The notes: a model not told the origin generated them from the letters alone. DNA of 44,153 nt from Promethearchaeota archaeon Loki_b31 (GCA_005222975.1 NJBI01000028.1:1-44153); one strand, 5' to 3'; numbered from the stretch's first letter, positions 5,673 to 15,100 are shown. Numbers and translations: made by a program.

Positions 5673-6470
5673 ATGGTTCAAAAAGATTTCGAGCATGTAA
5701 TATTTAAAATCGAGGATAATATCGGAGTAATTACTTTAAATCGCCCAAAACGACTAAACGCTTTAAATTATCCCCTATTAATGGAAATCATTGATATTTT
5801 AGAATTAAATTCTAAAAACAAAATAATCCGTGTTTTTGTTATTGAAGGTAATGAGCAATCCTTCAGCTCCGGTGACGATTTAAAGAGTATGGGTCCTGAT
5901 GGTCCAAGGTTTAAGCCATTAGCTGACGGGTCAAAACTTCCACATCAGAGAGTTATTCGATTAATAAGAGAAATTCAAAAACCATTTATAGCGTTATTAC
6001 AAGGATATTGTCTAGGCGCTGGACTCGAATTAGCACTCGCTTGTGACTTTCGTTTAGCGGCAGATAATCTGAAGATCGGAGATCATCGCGTTAATCGGGC
6101 TCACTGCGTTATGAGCGGGGCAAGTTGGCTTCTTCCGAGAATAGTAGGGTTCGCACGAGCAACAGATATACTCTTAACGGGGCGTCAACTTGATGCTAAG
6201 GAAGCATTAACGATTGGTTTAGTAAATAAAGTCTTTTCATTATCAGAATTTAGTAAGGAATCTAAGGAATTTATTCAATCCATAGCCAAACTACCCACTA
6301 GATGCTTAGGTTATAACAAGACTATGCTTAATTATTCTCAATATAACGAGTTATTTCCCTCGTTAAAACACGAATTTAAATTATATTGTAAAAACATCGC
6401 AACATACGATTTTGGAGAAGGAATGAAATCATTTCAGGAAAAGCGAGAACCAAAATTTAAAGGGAAATGA
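5673..6470 (+). CDS. Enoyl-CoA hydratase/isomerase (crotonase) family protein
   Basis: ITLNRPKRLNAL, FSSGDDL, GYCLGAGLELALACDFR, EKREPKFKGK; ATG 5673 preferred over TTG 5649. Confidence 0.93.
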   Translation: MVQKDFEHVIFKIEDNIGVITLNRPKRLNALNYPLLMEIIDILELNSKNKIIRVFVIEGNEQSFSSGDDLKSMGPDGPRFKPLADGSKLPHQRVIRLIREIQKPFIALLQGYCLGAGLELALACDFRLAADNLKIGDHRVNRAHCVMSGASWLLPRIVGFARATDILLTGRQLDAKEALTIGLVNKVFSLSEFSKESKEFIQSIAKLPTRCLGYNKTMLNYSQYNELFPSLKHEFKLYCKNIATYDFGEGMKSFQEKREPKFKGK

Positions 6471-6533: not shown

Positions 6534-7790
6534 TTGTTATCAGAAGAAATAAAAGAATTCTTATTAAAAGAAGCAACGGATAGATTTTTCAGATATGTTC
6601 AAATATGGACTACATCTGACGAAGATTCCCAATCCAATCCATCATCTAAAAATCAATTTGAATTAGGAAATGTATTAGTTGCTGAATTGAAGGAGCTGAA
6701 TCTAGATAATATAATACACAACGAGTATGGATATGTTTACGCCGATTTACCAGCAAGTAACGGGTTAGAAAAAGTTAAAACAATTGGATTAATAGCCCAT
6801 ATGGATACTTCACAAGCAGTGAGCGGGAAAAACGTTAAACCAGTTGTCCATAAAAATTATGATGGTGGTGCGATAAAATTCGTAAGCAATAAGGAAATTG
6901 AGCTTACAGTTGAAGATTCTCCATTGTTAAAGGAATATATTGGTTTAGATATCATTACTTCAGAAGGTGATACCTTATTAGGTGCAGACGATAAAGCTGG
7001 AATCGCAGAAATTATGGCCGCGTGCGCTGCTTGGAAAAGTTTTCCAGAACTAAAACACGGACCTATTACTGTATGTTTTACGCCAGATGAGGAAATAGGA
7101 AAAGGAACGCTAAAGATTGATAAAAAAAGGTTACCCGAATTCTGTTACACCATGGATGGTTCAGAGATGGGACAATTGGAATTTGAATGTTTTGACGCAT
7201 GGAAAGCGACTATAACTTTTATAGGGCTTAGTGTGCATCCAGGTTACGCTAAAAATCTAATGGTAAACGCAATACATATAGCGTGCCGGTTTCTTAGTGA
7301 AATCCCTGAACATGAATCACCAGAACACACGGAAGACCGAGAAGGATTTTATCATATGGGAGACCTGAGAGGAACAGAAGAAGAAGCTAAAACCAAATTA
7401 ATAATCAGAGATTATGATGAAATAAATAATAAAAAAAGGATGGAATTCCTTCAAAAATTGAAAGAGATCTATGAATTTCGATATCCGGGCTTAAAAATTG
7501 AGCTAAAATTTGAACACCAATACAGGAATATGTTAAAATTTATTGAAAAGGAAATGATAGTCGTTGACTTAGCAAAAGAAGCTATTAAAATGGCAGATAT
7601 AGATATAAAAATTGAAGCTATTAGAGGCGGAACCGATGGTTCTAAACTTAGCGAAATGGGGATTCCGACACCGAATATTTTTTCTGGGGGTCTCTTATTT
7701 CATTCTAGAAAAGAACATATTCCCACTTTAGCGTTACAGAAAGCCGCAGAAGTTATTATTTATTTAGGGCAATTATGGGCTGCTTCTTAA
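6534..7790 (+). CDS. pepT: Peptidase T (M20 tripeptide aminopeptidase)
   Basis: AHMDTS, TLLGADDKAG, FTPDEEIG, VHPGYAK, IRGGTDG, PTPNIFSGG..FHS motifs. Confidence 0.96.
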   Translation: MLSEEIKEFLLKEATDRFFRYVQIWTTSDEDSQSNPSSKNQFELGNVLVAELKELNLDNIIHNEYGYVYADLPASNGLEKVKTIGLIAHMDTSQAVSGKNVKPVVHKNYDGGAIKFVSNKEIELTVEDSPLLKEYIGLDIITSEGDTLLGADDKAGIAEIMAACAAWKSFPELKHGPITVCFTPDEEIGKGTLKIDKKRLPEFCYTMDGSEMGQLEFECFDAWKATITFIGLSVHPGYAKNLMVNAIHIACRFLSEIPEHESPEHTEDREGFYHMGDLRGTEEEAKTKLIIRDYDEINNKKRMEFLQKLKEIYEFRYPGLKIELKFEHQYRNMLKFIEKEMIVVDLAKEAIKMADIDIKIEAIRGGTDGSKLSEMGIPTPNIFSGGLLFHSRKEHIPTLALQKAAEVIIYLGQLWAAS

Positions 7791-7815: not shown

Positions 7816-7998
7816 TTAGGCTTCACTTTTTTTTATGATTTTAGAAAAGTCAGTTATCGTAAAACAAATAATACATACAGCTAATAAAATTGAAATATAA
7901 ATAAACGCCCAAGTATACGAAAACACGCTATATATATATCCAAAAACTAAGGCTTCCACCATACTTATAAATCCGACTGACAAATAATAGTATCCACA
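7816..7998 (-). pseudogene. Orphan 3'-terminal fragment of an MFS transporter gene (homologous to 13282-14538)
   Basis: Minus-strand translation GYYYLSVGFISMVEALVFGYIYSVFSYTWAFIYISILLAVCIICFTITDFSKIIKKSEA* matches the C-terminus of the MFS at 13291-13449 (45/53 aa identical by hand alignment); homology stops abruptly near 7998. Confidence 0.92.
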
Positions 7999-8081
7999 AA
8001 ATTTTGAAATATGCTCATTATATTCTTTTTATTAATTTTTTGATAATAATATTTAATCTTTTTTAAACATGTTTTATATTC

Positions 8082-10211
8082 ATGAAAGAAAAGGGTATAC
8101 CTCAGATCTCATATGAAATGATTCAAGAGATAACGAATCCAACTTATTTCAACCGGGGCGAGAGTTATTACAAGTCTGGAATGGTTAAAAAAGGTTGGAT
8201 TATTGAGGATGGTATAAAAGCAAAAATGAGAGGTAATTATAAACCTTATTATCTTGTAGAAATTTCTGTGTCTGATACTATGAAACTAAGAGGAAAATGT
8301 ACGTGTCCGATTGGATTTGGATGTAAACACAGCGTTGCAACTTGTTTACAATATCTTTATGAACCGGAATTTTTTATTAATAAAATTTGTGACCAAGAAT
8401 TATCTCATCTTAAAGGCTTAAAAGAAAAAGAAAAGAGAAATATAAAAGTTCCTAAAAACTATGAATTAAATCCGATTTCCGTACAAGAATGGGTTTCAAC
8501 ATTACCAATAGAAGTATTAAAGACAAGATTTATAGATCTTTGGAATCGTTTTGCTCCAACAATATTCAAAAATCTCCTAGATCCAGATTATCCTCATTAC
8601 TTTTGGTTTTCTCAACTTATTGATATATCAGATTTTATTGATTCTCGTGAAGAAGAAAACTCTAATAAATGGTTTAGACCTCTTGAGTTAATAGATTTTC
8701 TAAATGATTCTGATCTTTTTATTCCAATACTATATAATTGGACACAATCTTATATTGAATTAGGGAGGGAAATAAAGCAAGAATTCAATTCTATTGGAAT
8801 AACTGAAAATATGATTGATTTTGATCCAGAGTTTTATTTCATAGATGATAATAATGGGGATAACCATAATAGTTGGGATTATGATTATTACGATGAAAAT
8901 AATGCAGAATCGATAGCAGACGATTTTTTCTCTCAATATACAGAAATATTTGAGGAAATAGCGCACTTTTTTGGAATCTTAGTTCACAAGGACCTTTCGG
9001 ATTTGGCAAATAACCTATATGATTTTGGATTTAAGTGGTTTCTGGATTTAAATTTATCCGAACATAGGGATTATGGTTTAAACGAGTTATTTAAAAATCA
9101 AAGCAAATTTGGTGAAATAATCCAAAGTATACAAGCAAATAATTTGAAAGGGAAAAAGCGTATTGATTTTTTATTACAAATGTATTTAAAATTCAAATCG
9201 AAGAATATAAAAGAGAATATCATTAAGGAATTAAATCAATTATCAAATCAATCAGATTTAGACGAAAAAATTAAAGAAATTTGGCAGGAAATCCTTGCAA
9301 TATATAAAATTAAAATGATGAGTGAAGATTTTTTATTTTTACTTGGATTAGCTGAACAATTTTCTAAAGATAATTCTAAAACTCAATATTTGCTAAAAAA
9401 TACACTTCTTAACATTGAAAAGCACGCTGAAAATCCATATGATTTGATTCATTCCATTTTAACTAATTTTGGTGAAAAATCACTTGAAAACAGAGAATGG
9501 CTTTATGCTTTTATAATAAAAGGCAAATTTAACGATCAAAATATCATTGACGAGAAGTACAAGAATAATAAAGGCTTTCTCTGCTCCCATTGCTTTGAAT
9601 GGTTCTTCAAATATTATTTACCGAAGGGTGATATTGTTAAAATAATTGAACTCTGTAGATATGTTTTAAAACATAATCCTTTCTCTTTTGGATTTAATCA
9701 TTATTCCATGATGAAGAATTATTCCATACAAGATAGAGAGTTTGAAAAGGAAATTACTCCTTTTTTAAAATTAGATTTCTTGTCCGAATTAATTAAAAAG
9801 CGTCAATATAGTACTGCAAATAAAATTCTTCTTAATCAAAAGGATTATACTAAAGCAATATCTTTAACGCTTTTACATTATAGTGCAGATAAAGCGTGGG
9901 ATGTCATTAAAAAACTTCATATGGAGATCGTGATAAATAAATCTGATCAAGTTTTAAAAACTATATCTAAAGATGATTTTCTCTCATTAATTAAGCTTTT
10001 TAACAAATATTCAAGCGAATCAATGAAATTAAGATCTAAGCATAGACCAGATTTAAATATTTCTCAAGGTGTGCAATTATGTTTAAACCTCTATAAATAT
10101 TTTAAAATTCAATCCGAAGGAAATCAGTGGTTTTCACGATTTTGTAAAAAATATAAACGATTCCATAATTTAAGAAGTAGTCTTAAATCTCTGGGAATTG
10201 AAATGGTTTAA
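8082..10211 (+). CDS. SWIM zinc-finger domain protein with acidic tract and long helical C-terminus
   Basis: YFNRGESYY...CTCPIGFGCKH (CxC-x4-CxH) N-terminal SWIM signature. Confidence 0.85.
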   Translation: MKEKGIPQISYEMIQEITNPTYFNRGESYYKSGMVKKGWIIEDGIKAKMRGNYKPYYLVEISVSDTMKLRGKCTCPIGFGCKHSVATCLQYLYEPEFFINKICDQELSHLKGLKEKEKRNIKVPKNYELNPISVQEWVSTLPIEVLKTRFIDLWNRFAPTIFKNLLDPDYPHYFWFSQLIDISDFIDSREEENSNKWFRPLELIDFLNDSDLFIPILYNWTQSYIELGREIKQEFNSIGITENMIDFDPEFYFIDDNNGDNHNSWDYDYYDENNAESIADDFFSQYTEIFEEIAHFFGILVHKDLSDLANNLYDFGFKWFLDLNLSEHRDYGLNELFKNQSKFGEIIQSIQANNLKGKKRIDFLLQMYLKFKSKNIKENIIKELNQLSNQSDLDEKIKEIWQEILAIYKIKMMSEDFLFLLGLAEQFSKDNSKTQYLLKNTLLNIEKHAENPYDLIHSILTNFGEKSLENREWLYAFIIKGKFNDQNIIDEKYKNNKGFLCSHCFEWFFKYYLPKGDIVKIIELCRYVLKHNPFSFGFNHYSMMKNYSIQDREFEKEITPFLKLDFLSELIKKRQYSTANKILLNQKDYTKAISLTLLHYSADKAWDVIKKLHMEIVINKSDQVLKTISKDDFLSLIKLFNKYSSESMKLRSKHRPDLNISQGVQLCLNLYKYFKIQSEGNQWFSRFCKKYKRFHNLRSSLKSLGIEMV

Positions 10212-10405
10212 AAAATAAATAAGCAGAATTTAAATCATCATTACTAGCGTCGAATGGATTAATATCCATTATCGGTCATTTGAAAACCACCTTTATAAAA
10301 TCGTGTTCTCAAGTCCTGTATTCGGACATAAGACTTCCTTGTCGCACTTTTTCATTTAAATATAACCGTCATAATAAGGTAGTAAAAGAATTATGATAAT
10401 AAATT

Positions 10406-11017
10406 ATGACAGACTATATTGAAGATCCTTATATGGGATCTGAATACGATGAAATTTTTAATGATTGGTATGAAATTGAGGGAGAGAGAAAAATAAAAGA
10501 ACTTTCACGCCAACTCCGAACCTTTTTTAATTATAAGGCTGAAGTGATAAGATATCGATTTCGAATCAGTTCAAATCTGGCCGAAAATTTTACAAACACT
10601 AAATTTATTAGTCGAAAGAAAGAAATTGAATCATTAACTCATGATTTTATAACTTTGCTGAAGAGGTTAAAAAAACCCACCCAAACACTTGAGGAAGGGA
10701 TTCGATCTCTCTTTTTTAACAATGATAAAGCATGTTTTAATAAACTTTCAGCCATAACTGAGAAATTGTCCATGTTACTTCACTATTTTTCAGAGGAAAG
10801 CCTTCACAATCATCCAAAATTTCTCAAATTTAGCGTGATATTAGTACAACACCTTTGTTTGATGAAAAAATGCTTGAATGCACAATTTAGCGAATTTTTT
10901 GAGGAGCTTGAAATAAACTACAACAATTTAGAAGAAGAACTTGAAGATTTAATCGAAATCACGCCAATTAAGAAGAAACAATCAAAAAAACAATTTGAGG
11001 AGAGATTAACTTCATGA
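10406..11017 (+). CDS. Hypothetical helical protein with acidic N-terminus, coupled to downstream nuclease gene
   Basis: 203-aa ORF; its TGA overlaps the next ATG (ATGA at 11014-11017). Confidence 0.75.
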   Translation: MTDYIEDPYMGSEYDEIFNDWYEIEGERKIKELSRQLRTFFNYKAEVIRYRFRISSNLAENFTNTKFISRKKEIESLTHDFITLLKRLKKPTQTLEEGIRSLFFNNDKACFNKLSAITEKLSMLLHYFSEESLHNHPKFLKFSVILVQHLCLMKKCLNAQFSEFFEELEINYNNLEEELEDLIEITPIKKKQSKKQFEERLTS

Positions 11018-13170
11018 AAGCATATACTAACGTATCACGGAAAAATGTGGGAGAGGATCGAGTAGCAATCTGCCCAAATTTTGGATGTGAGTACATGACA
11101 CGAGTTAAACCTCTTAAATTTAGGTTCTTAGGTTTTGGTAAGCATCCTAAATGCAAGAAACATCGAATCCCTTTAGTTTATGTTGATAAAAGAATCGGTG
11201 ATTTCATGGATGCTGCCCTAGCGTGTTTTTTTGATAAAGCAGGACTTCCTCCAAGTGAATTACTCGAGGATGTAAAATCGAAATTCCCTGACGAATTTAA
11301 CTCGTTTGTAGAAGGATGGATGTATTGCATCACGGTTGGAAGAGGAGCGCCCATAGTTTCACGTTATATGGATACAATTTCAAATGCATATCTCAAGCAA
11401 TTGACCAAGAAACAAATTAAGGCACTTAAAAAAGGATATGATTCTAAGCCAAATCTCGTGAATAAAGCAATTAAGGATGGAATGGATGAAATTACTATCC
11501 AATATACGAGGATTCTCAAGCACTTGAGAGCTCATTCCGAGATCCTCGTTGATCATCAAAAACTTCAATCATTTTCTAGAAGCCTCCAAAATTACTTGAA
11601 GGATTGGCAAGAAATTATATTAAAGCGCAATGAGATCGTTAATTCTCCAGAAAACAAGCGCGAAATGACTTTAAAAGAGACCAAGTTTAATTATGATCAA
11701 ATCCTAAACATTGGCACATGTCGATCCCTTCTCGGATTAAATCCTGAAAGTAAAGAAGTAAAGAAAGCGGGATTAACCGCATTTGATAGATTTTCTGTAT
11801 ATCACGAATTTTATAGTGAAGGTTTAACTTCGAAATTTACTAAATCAGATATCAGTAACATAATTTCAGAAAGTAAATTAAATAATCATCACCAACCTGA
11901 TATAGATAAGGCTCAATGCGGTTTAAATAATAATAATATCTCATTTTTTGAAAAGTTTAAGGATCAAAATATATTTTTACAGAATTTACAAGAATTAAAT
12001 GGATTTTGCTTAGAAATGGATGATTTTAATAATAATAGTGAAAAAAGAATATTAACAATATCGGTCGAAGTAAAAGAAAAAATCTTTAATGAAGTTGGGA
12101 GGGAAATTGAAAAAATTAAAAAGGGATTAAAACCTAAATCGCTCGCAAAAATTTGGAGAGATTCTTTCCAAGATGTAATTAGTCAGAAACATTTATTAAA
12201 TATTGTTAAAGAAAGATTCTTCGAAATATATGAGAAAATCTGGGGTTCTAAAGCATTAAAGAAGCCATCAACTTATCGTAAGACCGATAGACTGCATATT
12301 GAAGATGTAGAAAAAATCATAACTGAAAAGAGAGGTAAGTTAATAAACACCTTCAGGAAAGAAAAGGATACAGAATTCTATCTTAGAATTTTATGTAAAA
12401 ATAAACATATATTTGAAATAGCAAAGAGTGAATTAAAAAGAGGAAGATGGTGTCCTAAAGAAAGTAAATCTTGTCCTAAAACTGATGAAGAACATAGAAA
12501 AGGTATAAGAGATATTATTTCTGCTAAAAATGGTACGATAATAGACTCATACAAAAAACAAGGAGATGGTGATTATTACTTTAAAATTCAATGTGATAAA
12601 AATCATATATTTATTAAGAGAAAAACAGCATTAGTTAGAGGTAGATGGTGTCCCTATTGTAATGAAGGAAAGTATGAAAAAATAATATTATGGTATTTTA
12701 GTAAAATTTTATCTCATATTATTGGAAAAAAAATTTGTTTTAAAAAAGTAATGCTTTGTAGTGTCCTTGACTGTTCTAATATTAAAAAAAAGATTCCAGA
12801 AAGATATAAAGATCTTACTATTTCTAATATGCATTTTGATGGATTCTTCAAGCTAGAAATAGGTAATCAAATATTTAATATAGTTATTGAATATCAAGGA
12901 TCTCAACATTATGAATTCCCAAATAGATTTAACGATAATACTAATAAAGGGAGAAGTGATTTTCTAAAAGCTCAGTTAGGAGACAATTTCAAAAGATGGT
13001 TAGATTTTGAAAAAAACATAATTTTGATTGAATTTCCTTATAACATAGATAAATCAATGAGTCATCCGAAGAGAATCAGAGATTTTATCGTATCAAGATT
13101 GAGACAAAAATTAAATATTAGTATTGGTCGAATTCCCGAATTCAATCATATAACGCAAGGAATATTTTAA
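11014..13170 (+). CDS. Multidomain protein: N-terminal Cys/His Zn motif, two Zn-ribbon repeats, C-terminal PD-(D/E)xK (Vsr/DUF559-like) endonuclease
   Basis: CPNFGC...HPKCKKH; repeats CKNKHIF..KRGRWCPK and CDKNHIF..VRGRWCPYC; HFDGFF...IVIEYQGSQHY...DNFK nuclease motif. Confidence 0.75.
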   Translation: MKAYTNVSRKNVGEDRVAICPNFGCEYMTRVKPLKFRFLGFGKHPKCKKHRIPLVYVDKRIGDFMDAALACFFDKAGLPPSELLEDVKSKFPDEFNSFVEGWMYCITVGRGAPIVSRYMDTISNAYLKQLTKKQIKALKKGYDSKPNLVNKAIKDGMDEITIQYTRILKHLRAHSEILVDHQKLQSFSRSLQNYLKDWQEIILKRNEIVNSPENKREMTLKETKFNYDQILNIGTCRSLLGLNPESKEVKKAGLTAFDRFSVYHEFYSEGLTSKFTKSDISNIISESKLNNHHQPDIDKAQCGLNNNNISFFEKFKDQNIFLQNLQELNGFCLEMDDFNNNSEKRILTISVEVKEKIFNEVGREIEKIKKGLKPKSLAKIWRDSFQDVISQKHLLNIVKERFFEIYEKIWGSKALKKPSTYRKTDRLHIEDVEKIITEKRGKLINTFRKEKDTEFYLRILCKNKHIFEIAKSELKRGRWCPKESKSCPKTDEEHRKGIRDIISAKNGTIIDSYKKQGDGDYYFKIQCDKNHIFIKRKTALVRGRWCPYCNEGKYEKIILWYFSKILSHIIGKKICFKKVMLCSVLDCSNIKKKIPERYKDLTISNMHFDGFFKLEIGNQIFNIVIEYQGSQHYEFPNRFNDNTNKGRSDFLKAQLGDNFKRWLDFEKNIILIEFPYNIDKSMSHPKRIRDFIVSRLRQKLNISIGRIPEFNHITQGIF

Positions 13171-13281
13171 AATGTTTTAAGAAAACAATGTAATTAAACT
13201 ATACTCCCCCGACAAAAAAATCTAACTAATAATTTGTTAAATTAACTTTTTTTTTCATTAATTTCAAGTACTCTTTTGGTT

Positions 13282-14538
13282 TTAAAACGATATTTTAGAA
13301 AAATCTGTAATCGCGAAGATAACAATACATACTGCTAACAGAATTGAAATGTAAATAAACGCCCAAGTAAACGAGAATGCGTCATATAAATAGCCGAAGA
13401 TCAAAGCCTCAACCATACTAATGAATCCAACCGATAAATAGTAATACCCATAAGCTCGTCCTCTTTTTTCTTCACCTGCTAGGTCAGCTATAAATGCTCT
13501 TGAGATTGGATCCACAGAGGCTAGGTAAAAGCCGTGCATGATGTAAATTACAATAATTAAAACTATTGAAAAAAGAGAGACTTCAATAGGAAAAGCTAAA
13601 ATAACACAAGATAGTAGTAATATCGATAATCCGATCACGATCATCGGTTTTCGGCCAATTTTATCGGACAAGGAGCCATTTATTGGAGAAAAAATTGTAT
13701 AAACTATGTTCAATATAAGATAAAAAACAGGTATAAGGTAAATTAAATTGGAAGGAATATAGTCTAATGCTCTAATAATTAAAAATACGACATCTAAACT
13801 GGCAAATTCAATAACTCCAAGAATAACGATTAATTTTATGAAATTTTTATCAATCTTTTCACTCTTTTCTTTTCTAATTTTTTTCCCAAGTTTTTTATCT
13901 AACTCTTCTGGAGAAACATCTTTAACTGGAAGAATTAGGGCAATTGCAATACATCCAGGAATTATTGAGAAAAATATTATTTGTGAATAGCTCCATGCGT
14001 AAAATAATAAAAGAAATGCAAGTAATGAGCCAAGAACCGCTCCTAATGTATCCATAGCACGATGCAATCCAAATGCCTTTCCTTTTTTAGTAGCGTAAAA
14101 AGAAATAAGAGCGTCTCTCGAAGATGTTCTCAATCCTTTACCTACTCGATCTGTTGCTTTTAACCCTAAAACCATTTCCCATGAAGGACTCAACCCTATT
14201 AATGGTTTTGAAAGGTTCGATAAGGAATATCCAGCTACAATAAAAGGTTTTCTTTTGTTTATTTTATCGCTCATCCAGCCGGTAATTCCTTTTAAAATGT
14301 TCGCAATAGCATTTGTAATTCCTGAAATTAGCCCTAAAATTAGCACACTTCCTCCAATTTCTAAAATAAACAAAGGTAATATGCTTTGAATGCTTTCGCT
14401 AGAAATATCTGTAAACAATGATACTAATCCCATCAAAAATACTGGAATTGAAACTCCAAATATCATTCTTCGTCTTTTTATTGATTTACCAATTGTTTGG
14501 CTATTTGTAGGTTTTTTTTCTTCTTTGCTCATAATCAA
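13282..14538 (-). CDS. MFS transporter
   Basis: About 12 TM segments; motif A twice (GWMSDKINKRK, GSLSDKIGRK); DRVGKGLRTSSRDALI, AFGLHRAMDTLGA. Confidence 0.95.
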   Translation of the reverse strand: MIMSKEEKKPTNSQTIGKSIKRRRMIFGVSIPVFLMGLVSLFTDISSESIQSILPLFILEIGGSVLILGLISGITNAIANILKGITGWMSDKINKRKPFIVAGYSLSNLSKPLIGLSPSWEMVLGLKATDRVGKGLRTSSRDALISFYATKKGKAFGLHRAMDTLGAVLGSLLAFLLLFYAWSYSQIIFFSIIPGCIAIALILPVKDVSPEELDKKLGKKIRKEKSEKIDKNFIKLIVILGVIEFASLDVVFLIIRALDYIPSNLIYLIPVFYLILNIVYTIFSPINGSLSDKIGRKPMIVIGLSILLLSCVILAFPIEVSLFSIVLIIVIYIMHGFYLASVDPISRAFIADLAGEEKRGRAYGYYYLSVGFISMVEALIFGYLYDAFSFTWAFIYISILLAVCIVIFAITDFSKISF

Positions 14539-14601: not shown

Positions 14602-14791
14602 GATTATGGATAATATTAATGTATGAGAGATATATAAATATTGTGAAATCTCTATCTTTTAGTTTTTAAACACTTTAATTATGTTAACCAAATATTAATA
14701 TTTCAGTTTACCTTTAATATTAAATGTATTAAAGTTTTAATTTAATTATATCACAAAAAAATAAGAAAAAATATAAATTAATTAATTGAAT

Positions 14792-15100
14792 ATGAATCCC
14801 TTATCAAAATTTAAGAAAGGAGCGATTATCGTCCATATTTTATATCATGCTAAAAAAGAAGCCATATATGGAGCTTGGCTTAAAGAAGAATTAAGGAAAC
14901 ACGGTTATGATATTTCTTACGGAACATTATACCCATGGTTAGCTAGATTAACTAATTCTGGTTATTTGCATGTTAATGAAAAAAATATTAATGGAAAAAT
15001 TCGCAAATATTATTCAATTACTAAGGAAGGAGAAAAACATTTCCAAAAAATAAAACAGTATCTAAAAGAACTTTATAACGAAGTTATGGAAGAAAAATAA
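14792..15100 (+). CDS. PadR family transcriptional regulator
   Basis: IYGAWLKEEL..HGYDISYGTLYPWL...RKYYSITKEG wHTH signature. Confidence 0.93.
   Translation: MNPLSKFKKGAIIVHILYHAKKEAIYGAWLKEELRKHGYDISYGTLYPWLARLTNSGYLHVNEKNINGKIRKYYSITKEGEKHFQKIKQYLKELYNEVMEEK

Follow-up and report, generated by a model that had tools for sequence, protein, structure and literature searches.

The genome of Promethearchaeota archaeon Loki_b31 carries a three-gene island at the 3' end of a gene for an MFS transporter, and the transporter gene at this site has two ends, one native and one foreign. The window, meaning the whole stretch of 44,153 nucleotides (nt) that was analysed (GCA_005222975.1 NJBI01000028.1:1-44153), is the entire 44-kb contig C72 of a metagenome-assembled genome (MAG) with 92% completeness and 6% contamination. 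We think it probable, at roughly 60%, that the island is a homing-type element that restores its target gene by replacing the end of that gene with a diverged one. This reading is based on the following: the genes for a small protein, p203, and a nuclease, p718, are the sole genes shared by elements of this architecture, the breakpoints lie at the edges of the duplicated segment, one of the two copies is foreign, and the nuclease domains are of homing-endonuclease families.

Two ends of one transporter gene

To the left of the island are an enoyl-CoA hydratase gene, a gene for a pepT-like M20 peptidase on the plus strand, and a short minus-strand open frame. To the right are the MFS gene on the minus strand, a PadR gene, and an alpha/beta hydrolase gene. 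Between them lie three plus-strand genes for proteins of 709, 203 (p203), and 718 (p718) amino acids. A preliminary description of this DNA had read the short open frame after pepT as a stop-terminated copy of the last ~53 codons of the MFS gene, with mostly synonymous differences, and both points were reproduced. Ungapped alignment of 7837-7995 with 13291-13449 gives 37 mismatches in 159 nt, 8 changes in 53 amino acids, and a longest identical run of 18 nt; by the Nei-Gojobori method there are 27.0 synonymous differences over 33.8 sites (proportion pS 0.80, saturated) and 10.0 non-synonymous differences over 125.2 sites (pN 0.08). In this orphan end an open frame extends from 7999 as far as a stop at 7816-7818, and 25 nt separate that stop from the pepT stop (7790). 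When the MFS protein was compared with the whole genome, the orphan was matched at E 1.1e-23 with 79% amino acid identity, far above the next paralogue at 35%, so the similarity is not due to chance.

The MFS gene was searched for in 41 genomes (the MAG and 40 relatives) and found in 29, and the locus was retrieved from 20 genomes of the same genus. The empty site expected from the preliminary description is present in all 20: an abhydrolase gene is followed by the MFS gene, which converges on pepT with nothing between them. The last 300 nt of the window's MFS body before the junction are 95–97% identical to those of four genomes (G017, G005, G021, and G009; genomes, contigs, and loci are given by working labels), while the attached end is 79–81% identical to the same clade and 77% to the orphan. 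The closest matches to the attached end are in G043 (93%), G015 (89%), and G014 (87%), whose MFS bodies are only 77–80% identical. At the junction, identity to G043 climbs from 80% to 93% as identity to the native clade falls from 95–97% to 79–81%. In the nucleotide alignment, the orphan and the spacer between it and pepT are nearly identical to the 3' ends of the closest relatives (93–96%), and the attached end is not. Of the two, it is the orphan that is native to the MFS gene, and the attached end is of foreign origin, as had been proposed. The crossover, which had been left to be located, falls where the orphan begins: the switch from native to foreign sequence lies between ..GGACGAGC and TATGGG.., within ~10 nt of the orphan start. 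The earlier observation that the junction has no identical core also stands, with shared identity there of at most ~5 nt and the 18-nt run lying ~85 nt inside the repeat.

Two other origins of the duplicate were rejected. The end was not duplicated in place as a target site, since one copy is foreign in origin; unlike the target-site duplication of a transposon, the copies are 77% identical and one of them is nearest to a different lineage. Tandem MFS paralogues, one of them reduced to a remnant by deletion, had been named as an account that would overturn the insertion, and no relative has two MFS copies at the locus. The MFS gene of G005 was considered as a footprint of island loss. The first 20 nt after the junction are of the foreign type there, but other native genomes are polymorphic at these positions and the case is suggestive only.

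Two side observations concern MFS ends in other genomes. In the island-free G008, G002, and G051 (L031, L034, and L095), the MFS bodies are 76–78% identical to that of the window and the last 158 nt are 89–92% identical to the orphan, a disagreement of body and end that possibly stems from past end replacements. G015, with an empty main MFS locus, has a second diverged MFS 3' end on a 611-bp contig (G015:C127, L046), which could be an orphan elsewhere or contamination.

The features of the locus are these:

6534-7790, plus strand: pepT-like M20 peptidase, native flank (Pfam Peptidase_M20 and M20_dimer); convergent with the MFS gene in all relatives
7816-7999, minus strand: orphan, the displaced native MFS 3' end (last ~60 codons and stop) with the native downstream spacer; 93–96% nt identity to G017, G005, G021, and G009
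7997-8081, no strand: left end of the island, upstream of the SWIM gene; native MFS homology ends at ~7997-7999
8082-10211, plus strand: SWIM-zinc-finger family protein, 709 amino acids, probable cargo or accessory gene (weak Pfam SWIM match)
10279-10405, no strand: conserved region upstream of the cassette; nucleotide homology among copies starts ~127 nt before the p203 start
10406-11017, plus strand: p203, small helical partner of p718, accompanied in every case by the p718 N-terminal domain; its stop overlaps the p718 start (ATGA)
11014-13170, plus strand: p718, 718 amino acids, the nuclease gene of the cassette
11014-11883, plus strand: p718 N-terminal domain, residues 1-290, conserved in all cassettes (alignment A2)
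12337-12657, plus strand: two tandem zinc-ribbon modules of p718 (C..H...WCP.C), probable DNA-recognition part (internal repeat, Cys columns, model)
12661-13122, plus strand: C-terminal Vsr-like (putative PD-(D/E)xK-type) nuclease domain of p718 (structure alignment of the model, invariant columns)
13171-13281, no strand: element-borne spacer from the p718 stop to the replacement MFS stop; unmatched downstream of MFS in any relative
13282-13449, minus strand: foreign replacement MFS 3' end, in frame with the native body; 93% nt identity to G043
13450-14538, minus strand: native MFS body; the hybrid gene is intact (418 amino acids)

The inserted tract consists of the foreign MFS end plus ~5.3 kb, placed exactly before the native end (island ~7997-13449). 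The nuclease gene lies inside this tract, 111 nt from the stop of the hybrid MFS gene, whose frame is open and whose product matches Pfam MFS_1 at 4.2e-42, with the match extending to residue 409. Homology to islands at another locus begins at window position 7993 in the ENA contig L169 and at ~8009 in G004 (L078). Within the element-borne spacer, 13171-13210 is 97% identical in the JGI contig L168, where it stands beside the same nuclease variant. A separate presence/absence difference adjoins the island: the PadR gene between hydrolase and MFS (14786-15100) is found only in this genome and in G005, and other relatives have ~120 nt at its position.

An independent assembly has the same left junction, which rules out an artefact of the present one. 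A 28-mer across 7985-8012 was scanned against public metagenome contigs and found exactly in JABUBN010001944.1 (L172), which is 92.7% identical over window 7821-11858 and has the orphan, the SWIM gene, p203, and the p718 N-terminal domain of the window. The right junction is known from the window's own contig (C72) alone, and the hybrid gene across it is intact.

The same architecture at other loci

The cassette of p203 and the p718 N-terminal domain is present in 8 copies in this genome, always with both parts together. Within the genus, 22 of 42 genomes have it, a single genome giving as many as 12 matches; across the class, its occurrence is patchy (0–9 copies), with 31 of 161 Lokiarchaeia genomes positive. 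Some copies are decayed and contain stop codons. A patchy, multicopy distribution with decayed copies is what would be expected from the life cycle of a homing element.

One check suggested in the preliminary description was whether duplicated host-gene ends recur around homologues of 10406-13170, and at several loci they do. At an HD-domain gene, a 203-amino-acid gene, an oxidoreductase beta gene, and a fucose-isomerase-like gene, a sharply bounded host-gene segment is present twice, once in native and once in foreign form. We took a census of 48 cassettes with enough flanking sequence, using 250 random 3.2-kb pseudo-cassettes in this genome as controls. Flank similarity in direct orientation occurs in 15 of the 48 cassettes and in 10 of the 250 controls. 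With one copy required within 400 nt of the cassette, the counts are 11/48 and 4/250 (Fisher p 5e-7, with related cassettes not being independent), and 8/44 after orthologous sites are merged (p 4e-5). Flank duplicates at cassettes are an enrichment, not a rule. The flanked cassettes occupy at least eight loci. Every locus has a duplicated segment of its own, and neither the orientation nor the side of the cassette is constant; p203 and p718 are the only genes common to all of these elements.

One of these sites is an HD-domain gene on contig C46 of this genome, also seen in G017 and G021. Its last 56 codons are followed by a cassette, and a second open copy of the 56 codons stands directly after the stop of the p718 paralogue. 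This orphan is 90.7% identical in amino acids to the gene end of an empty-site relative, G050, and the attached end 62%; the switch from native to foreign again coincides with the edge of the duplicate. In G005, the HD site is empty and the gene end is a mosaic, foreign in type over its first ~58 nt and native in the rest, which fits loss of the cassette by recombination between the two copies.

Next to a 203-amino-acid gene on C46, a ~125-nt segment comprising the gene end and 38 nt of spacer lies on both sides of the cassette; the left copy is native (identical to the empty-site G021), and the one on the right, which follows p718, belongs to the G011/G056 type. The same intergenic region holds different cassette variants with other junctions in G017 and G041. 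G000:C46 and G017:C78 were also seen to carry three cassettes at syntenic positions, and at the 203-amino-acid-gene site their copies are only ~60–72% identical and have different junctions, which suggests that one intergenic region has been invaded repeatedly. The three-gene island itself (SWIM, p203, and p718) recurs in G004 and in the ENA contig L169 before a gene for the beta subunit of an oxoacid:ferredoxin oxidoreductase (OFOR-beta), at 87–88% nt identity to the window from ~7993-8009 to ~13160-13172. In L169 a 60-nt direct repeat of 5' codons of OFOR-beta lies on both flanks; beside the G004 island no host-gene remnant was found in the left flank (L078), where the contig ends 1.9 kb from the island. 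In G106, from another genus, p718 and a fucose-isomerase-like gene converge, and a 182-amino-acid orphan of the isomerase-like C-terminal domain lies beyond p203; this duplicate spans 194 codons. As a further observation, an 86-nt direct repeat (80% identical) at 5802-5888 and 10383-10469 of L101 (G000:C46 19001-38000) brackets a gene for an SBF/Acr3-type transporter together with a cassette, likewise in G017 (L176), and the transporter may be cargo.

The proteins of the island

None of the three island proteins matches Pfam, NCBIfam, or PHROGs at curated thresholds, apart from weak SWIM matches and PHROG 559, and a sequence search of the PDB gave nothing above threshold for any of them. The 709-amino-acid protein has a weak Pfam SWIM match at residues 71-91 and a PADLOC match to PDC-S62 (2.3e-10) on residues 6-96, and an Atlas feature search returned SWIM families at 0.93. 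Its gene is single-copy in this genome. Across three elements the protein is 92–94% identical, compared with just 68–75% for their nuclease C-termini.

The N-terminal domain of p718 begins with a part resembling a Cys/His zinc site and continues as an all-helical body, modelled at a predicted local distance difference test score (pLDDT) of 83. It has no convincing fold match in the PDB by Foldseek or VIA-align, the latter giving only generic helical hairpins, and an Atlas feature search found no relatives of it; Foldseek against the PDB gave no match for either of the two p718 models. A complex of p203 with this domain was predicted with an interface score (ipSAE) of 0.80 in three runs, against 0.01 for the best of 3 controls; a value of 0.80 is reached by 58 of 80 solved complexes and by 2 of 110 mismatched pairs. 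At least 85% of contacts are shared among the runs, with a partner pLDDT of 76–77. By this modelling, p203 is predicted to bind the p718 N-terminal domain, which says nothing about function.

Further along p718, a ~66-codon zinc-ribbon module is repeated in tandem (12259-12456 and 12457-12654, 39% amino acid identity). Conserved Cys columns appear here in alignment A3, and the model has two repeated beta-rich modules. A relative, P0004, carries extra copies, and recognition modules are thus variable in number. Immediately to the left of the G004 island, a stand-alone open reading frame (ORF) of 103 amino acids (L078, G004:C94, 1334-1645) encodes a zinc-ribbon module like those of the p718 paralogues.

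The C-terminal domain of p718 is modelled with a nuclease fold. In VIA-align the model matches Vsr (1cw0; Z 9.0, root-mean-square deviation [rmsd] 2.9, 117 residues aligned), a RAP domain (9gek; Z 9.1), and the homing endonuclease I-Bth0305I (3r3p; Z 8.1, rmsd 2.7, 97 of 98 residues). Columns D, E..G..H, and D..K are invariant among the 7 sequences of alignment A3, and PHROG 559 ("HNH endonuclease") matches the domain at 8.5e-7; no sequence profile matches it at threshold, and the fold match at Z 8–9 comes from the model. The C-terminal halves vary among copies, one paralogue having the HNH_3 motif twice (8.6e-9) and another matching LAGLIDADG_3 weakly. Vsr-like, HNH_3, and LAGLIDADG_3 C-termini all belong to homing-endonuclease families, which fits the proposed reading.

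Residues 431-718 of p718 are 93% identical between the window and L168, both at the pepT/MFS locus, and 86–92% between G004 and L169, both at OFOR-beta; between these two groups they are 68–75% identical, and the N-terminal domains are ~81–89% identical in all pairs. As judged from these comparisons, the C-terminal zinc-ribbon and nuclease part probably sets the target, and the modules are probably shuffled.

Proposed mechanism, alternatives, and known systems

In the homing-type reading, the mobile unit would be the p203–p718 cassette, here with SWIM cargo, together with an element-borne diverged end of the target gene. The p718 nuclease would cut an unoccupied MFS allele near codon ~363, between RAY and GYYY (..RAY/GYYY..). 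The break would then be repaired from an occupied allele, with the MFS body serving as one homology arm and the old MFS end beyond the element as the other, so that the replacement end and the element are copied in. The product would be a native body with a foreign end, the element, and the native end as an orphan. As the replacement end leaves the protein nearly unchanged and differs at most synonymous sites, the occupied allele would be shielded from recutting. The p203:p718-N module would be the part common to all cassettes, and the variable C-terminal part would probably set the target. Cleavage, its site, repair-mediated copying, and the resistance of the replacement end are what we infer from the anatomy.

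Several observations weigh against this reading. About two thirds of the cassettes are without a flank duplicate by the census method. In the JGI contig L168 (3300040952), whose nuclease is the closest relative of the window's (93% amino acid identity), the cassette stands beside pepT without the SWIM gene and without the orphan; at 380-660 the pepT end and spacer are followed by 73 unmatched nt and then directly by p203–p718, an arrangement that a simple model does not predict. Nuclease variant goes with locus in four elements, and L172 contradicts such a link, as its p718 from residue ~285 on is 81% identical to the C-terminus of the second cassette copy on C46, a type of another locus. L172 (53-2548, minus strand) is either a module swap or a mis-join at the shared repeat. 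Unless this contig is a recombinant or a mis-join, nuclease variant and locus are not strictly linked. The conserved p203/N-terminal-domain module could also itself be the mobility machinery.

Taken further, that last point gives an alternative in which p203 and the p718 N-terminal domain form a new recombinase or transposase and the variable C-terminus only targets it. They are the only part common to all cassettes, and a zinc-site-like start, the lack of a known fold, and a predicted heteromeric complex would suit such an enzyme. We nevertheless consider this quite improbable, as the all-helical domain shows neither a catalytic fold that can be recognised nor a conserved triad of acidic residues, the duplicates do not have the identity of target-site duplications, and an element-borne copy of the target is more simply obtained by repair copying than by transposition. 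A low probability also falls to a classical integrative element that entered the MFS 3' end by site-specific recombination, its attP bringing the replacement end and its integrase since lost or acting in trans. A crossover at the 5' edge of the homology with a diverged, element-borne 3' end is the product that such elements leave, and the anatomy fits Campbell-type insertion of a circle. In E. coli, e14 and phage 21 restore icd with a diverged 3' end of their own, and an integrase and an identical core are required. Neither was found in the island, where, as the preliminary description had stated, there is no recombinase gene, although serine recombinases were not searched for. Pfam, NCBIfam, and PHROGs reveal no integrase among the three island proteins, and ORF lists and Pfam scans of a few other cassette loci, likewise without a search for serine recombinases, reveal none. 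The whole MAG has a single tyrosine recombinase gene (PF00589), on contig C63 and outside the island. No identical run longer than ~5 nt is shared at the junction, and one integrase with one att site would not yield at least eight loci with their own duplicated segments.

The island may instead have been acquired passively, by homology-facilitated illegitimate recombination anchored in the MFS gene, with the nuclease uninvolved and the cassette a defence or conflict system along for the ride. One homologous anchor and one illegitimate joint can duplicate a gene end; the N-terminus of the SWIM protein resembles a PADLOC candidate defence protein, and a conserved N-terminal module with variable nuclease C-termini recalls polymorphic conflict systems. 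Random anchoring, however, would place the crossover anywhere upstream, and the MFS switch lies within ~10 nt of the orphan start; at the HD site, too, the switch coincides with the edge of the duplicate. Flank duplicates are also enriched at cassettes relative to random positions, and we regard this explanation as unlikely. Least probable by far is an assembly chimera of two co-occurring strains. The source is a MAG with contamination, but the 18-nt longest shared run is too short for typical assembly k-mers, the junction between orphan and island recurs in a relative (92.7% identical) that was assembled independently, the hybrid gene is unbroken with its frame preserved, and the same architecture is found in many genomes.

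More tentatively, with odds that we place a little short of even, Lokiarchaeia would carry a whole family of prokaryotic "third-category" homing elements, neither intron nor intein, with a two-protein chassis of p203 bound to a novel N-terminal domain, interchangeable nuclease and DNA-recognition modules, retargeting to many genes, recoded resistant copies of the invaded gene ends, and in some cases cargo (the SWIM protein, perhaps the transporter). The elements would then be natural gene-drive-like vehicles and a source of mosaic gene ends in Asgard populations. More generally, a gene-end-replacing strategy in an archaeon would mean independent origin in prokaryotes, here through an unrelated modular nuclease family with many targets. 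Mosaic gene ends in Asgard genomes would be accounted for, as would disagreement between gene ends and gene bodies, and related Lokiarchaeia would be expected to exchange DNA often and to repair it by recombination. The elements would also supply natural, retargetable site-specific nucleases, and because each is paired with a likely target, the native junction, as well as with a replacement end that is likely to be resistant, the homing hypothesis is directly testable.

The closest known systems are the following. WHO elements occur at FBA1 in the yeasts Torulaspora and Lachancea (Coughlan et al. 2020, PMC7282813). They have been described as a rare third category of homing element beside introns and inteins (Osborne et al. 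2026 preprint, doi 10.64898/2026.08.13.744650). A WHO unit consists of an endonuclease gene and a resistant copy of the FBA1 3' end, and the displaced old end acts as the second homology arm (PMC7282813). As in the island, a free-standing endonuclease gene stands beside a host gene, the diverged 3' end is part of the element, the old end survives as a fragment on its far side, and decayed copies exist. The sharp drop in identity at the WHO cut site (85% vs 99% in FBA1) resembles that at the island junction (~80% vs 95–97%). The proteins differ: a WHO protein has an intein-like LAGLIDADG domain and a zinc finger, whereas the island has a two-protein cassette with a novel N-terminal domain and swappable Vsr-like or HNH C-termini, and p718 has no intein or LAGLIDADG match in profile searches, which places it outside the WHO protein family. 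The WHO host is a meiotic eukaryote and there is mainly one target, while the cassettes reside in an archaeon and have many; unlike WHO elements, they also replace 5' ends and intergenic segments and carry cargo such as the SWIM gene.

Mobile ORFs (mORFs) of fungal mitochondria are a second parallel, known from atp6 of Allomyces macrogynus and from atp6, atp9, cox2, and nad3 of Glomus sp. (Beaudet et al. 2013, PMC3630166). There, too, insertion of an endonuclease ORF brings in a foreign coding segment for the C-terminus, and the native segment stays behind downstream; close relatives cluster with the native copy but not with the inserted one, which clusters elsewhere, and differences are largely synonymous. 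In contrast to the island, mORFs are in organelle genomes, consist of one LAGLIDADG or GIY-YIG ORF that is often joined in frame with the host gene, and have no partner protein or cargo genes. Intronless homing by free-standing phage endonucleases, such as those of the T4 seg and mob genes (e.g., mobE; PMC2790892), shares with the homing-type reading a nuclease gene that spreads by cutting a nearby gene in genomes without the nuclease, with co-conversion of flanking markers; T4 seg and mob genes differ in having no displaced duplicate of the target end and no replacement copy of their own. At the level of the nuclease domain, I-Bth0305I is an intron-encoded EDxHD/Vsr-like homing endonuclease (PMC3239194) whose fold matches the p718 C-terminal domain at a sequence similarity of ~9%, with the motif E-Y-x-G-x-x-H in p718 in place of EDxHD.

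The preliminary description had raised the possibility of a mobility mode not previously described in Asgard archaea. The mode itself matches WHO elements (PMC7282813) and mORFs (PMC3630166); its occurrence in archaea and the protein family look undescribed, and full-text searches of an incomplete body of literature, both for free-standing homing endonucleases of archaea or Asgard archaea and for such replacement of gene ends, gave no archaeal description. Set beside these systems, the logic of the island is known, and what looks new is the domain of life, the protein family, the two-protein chassis, the many targets, and the cargo.

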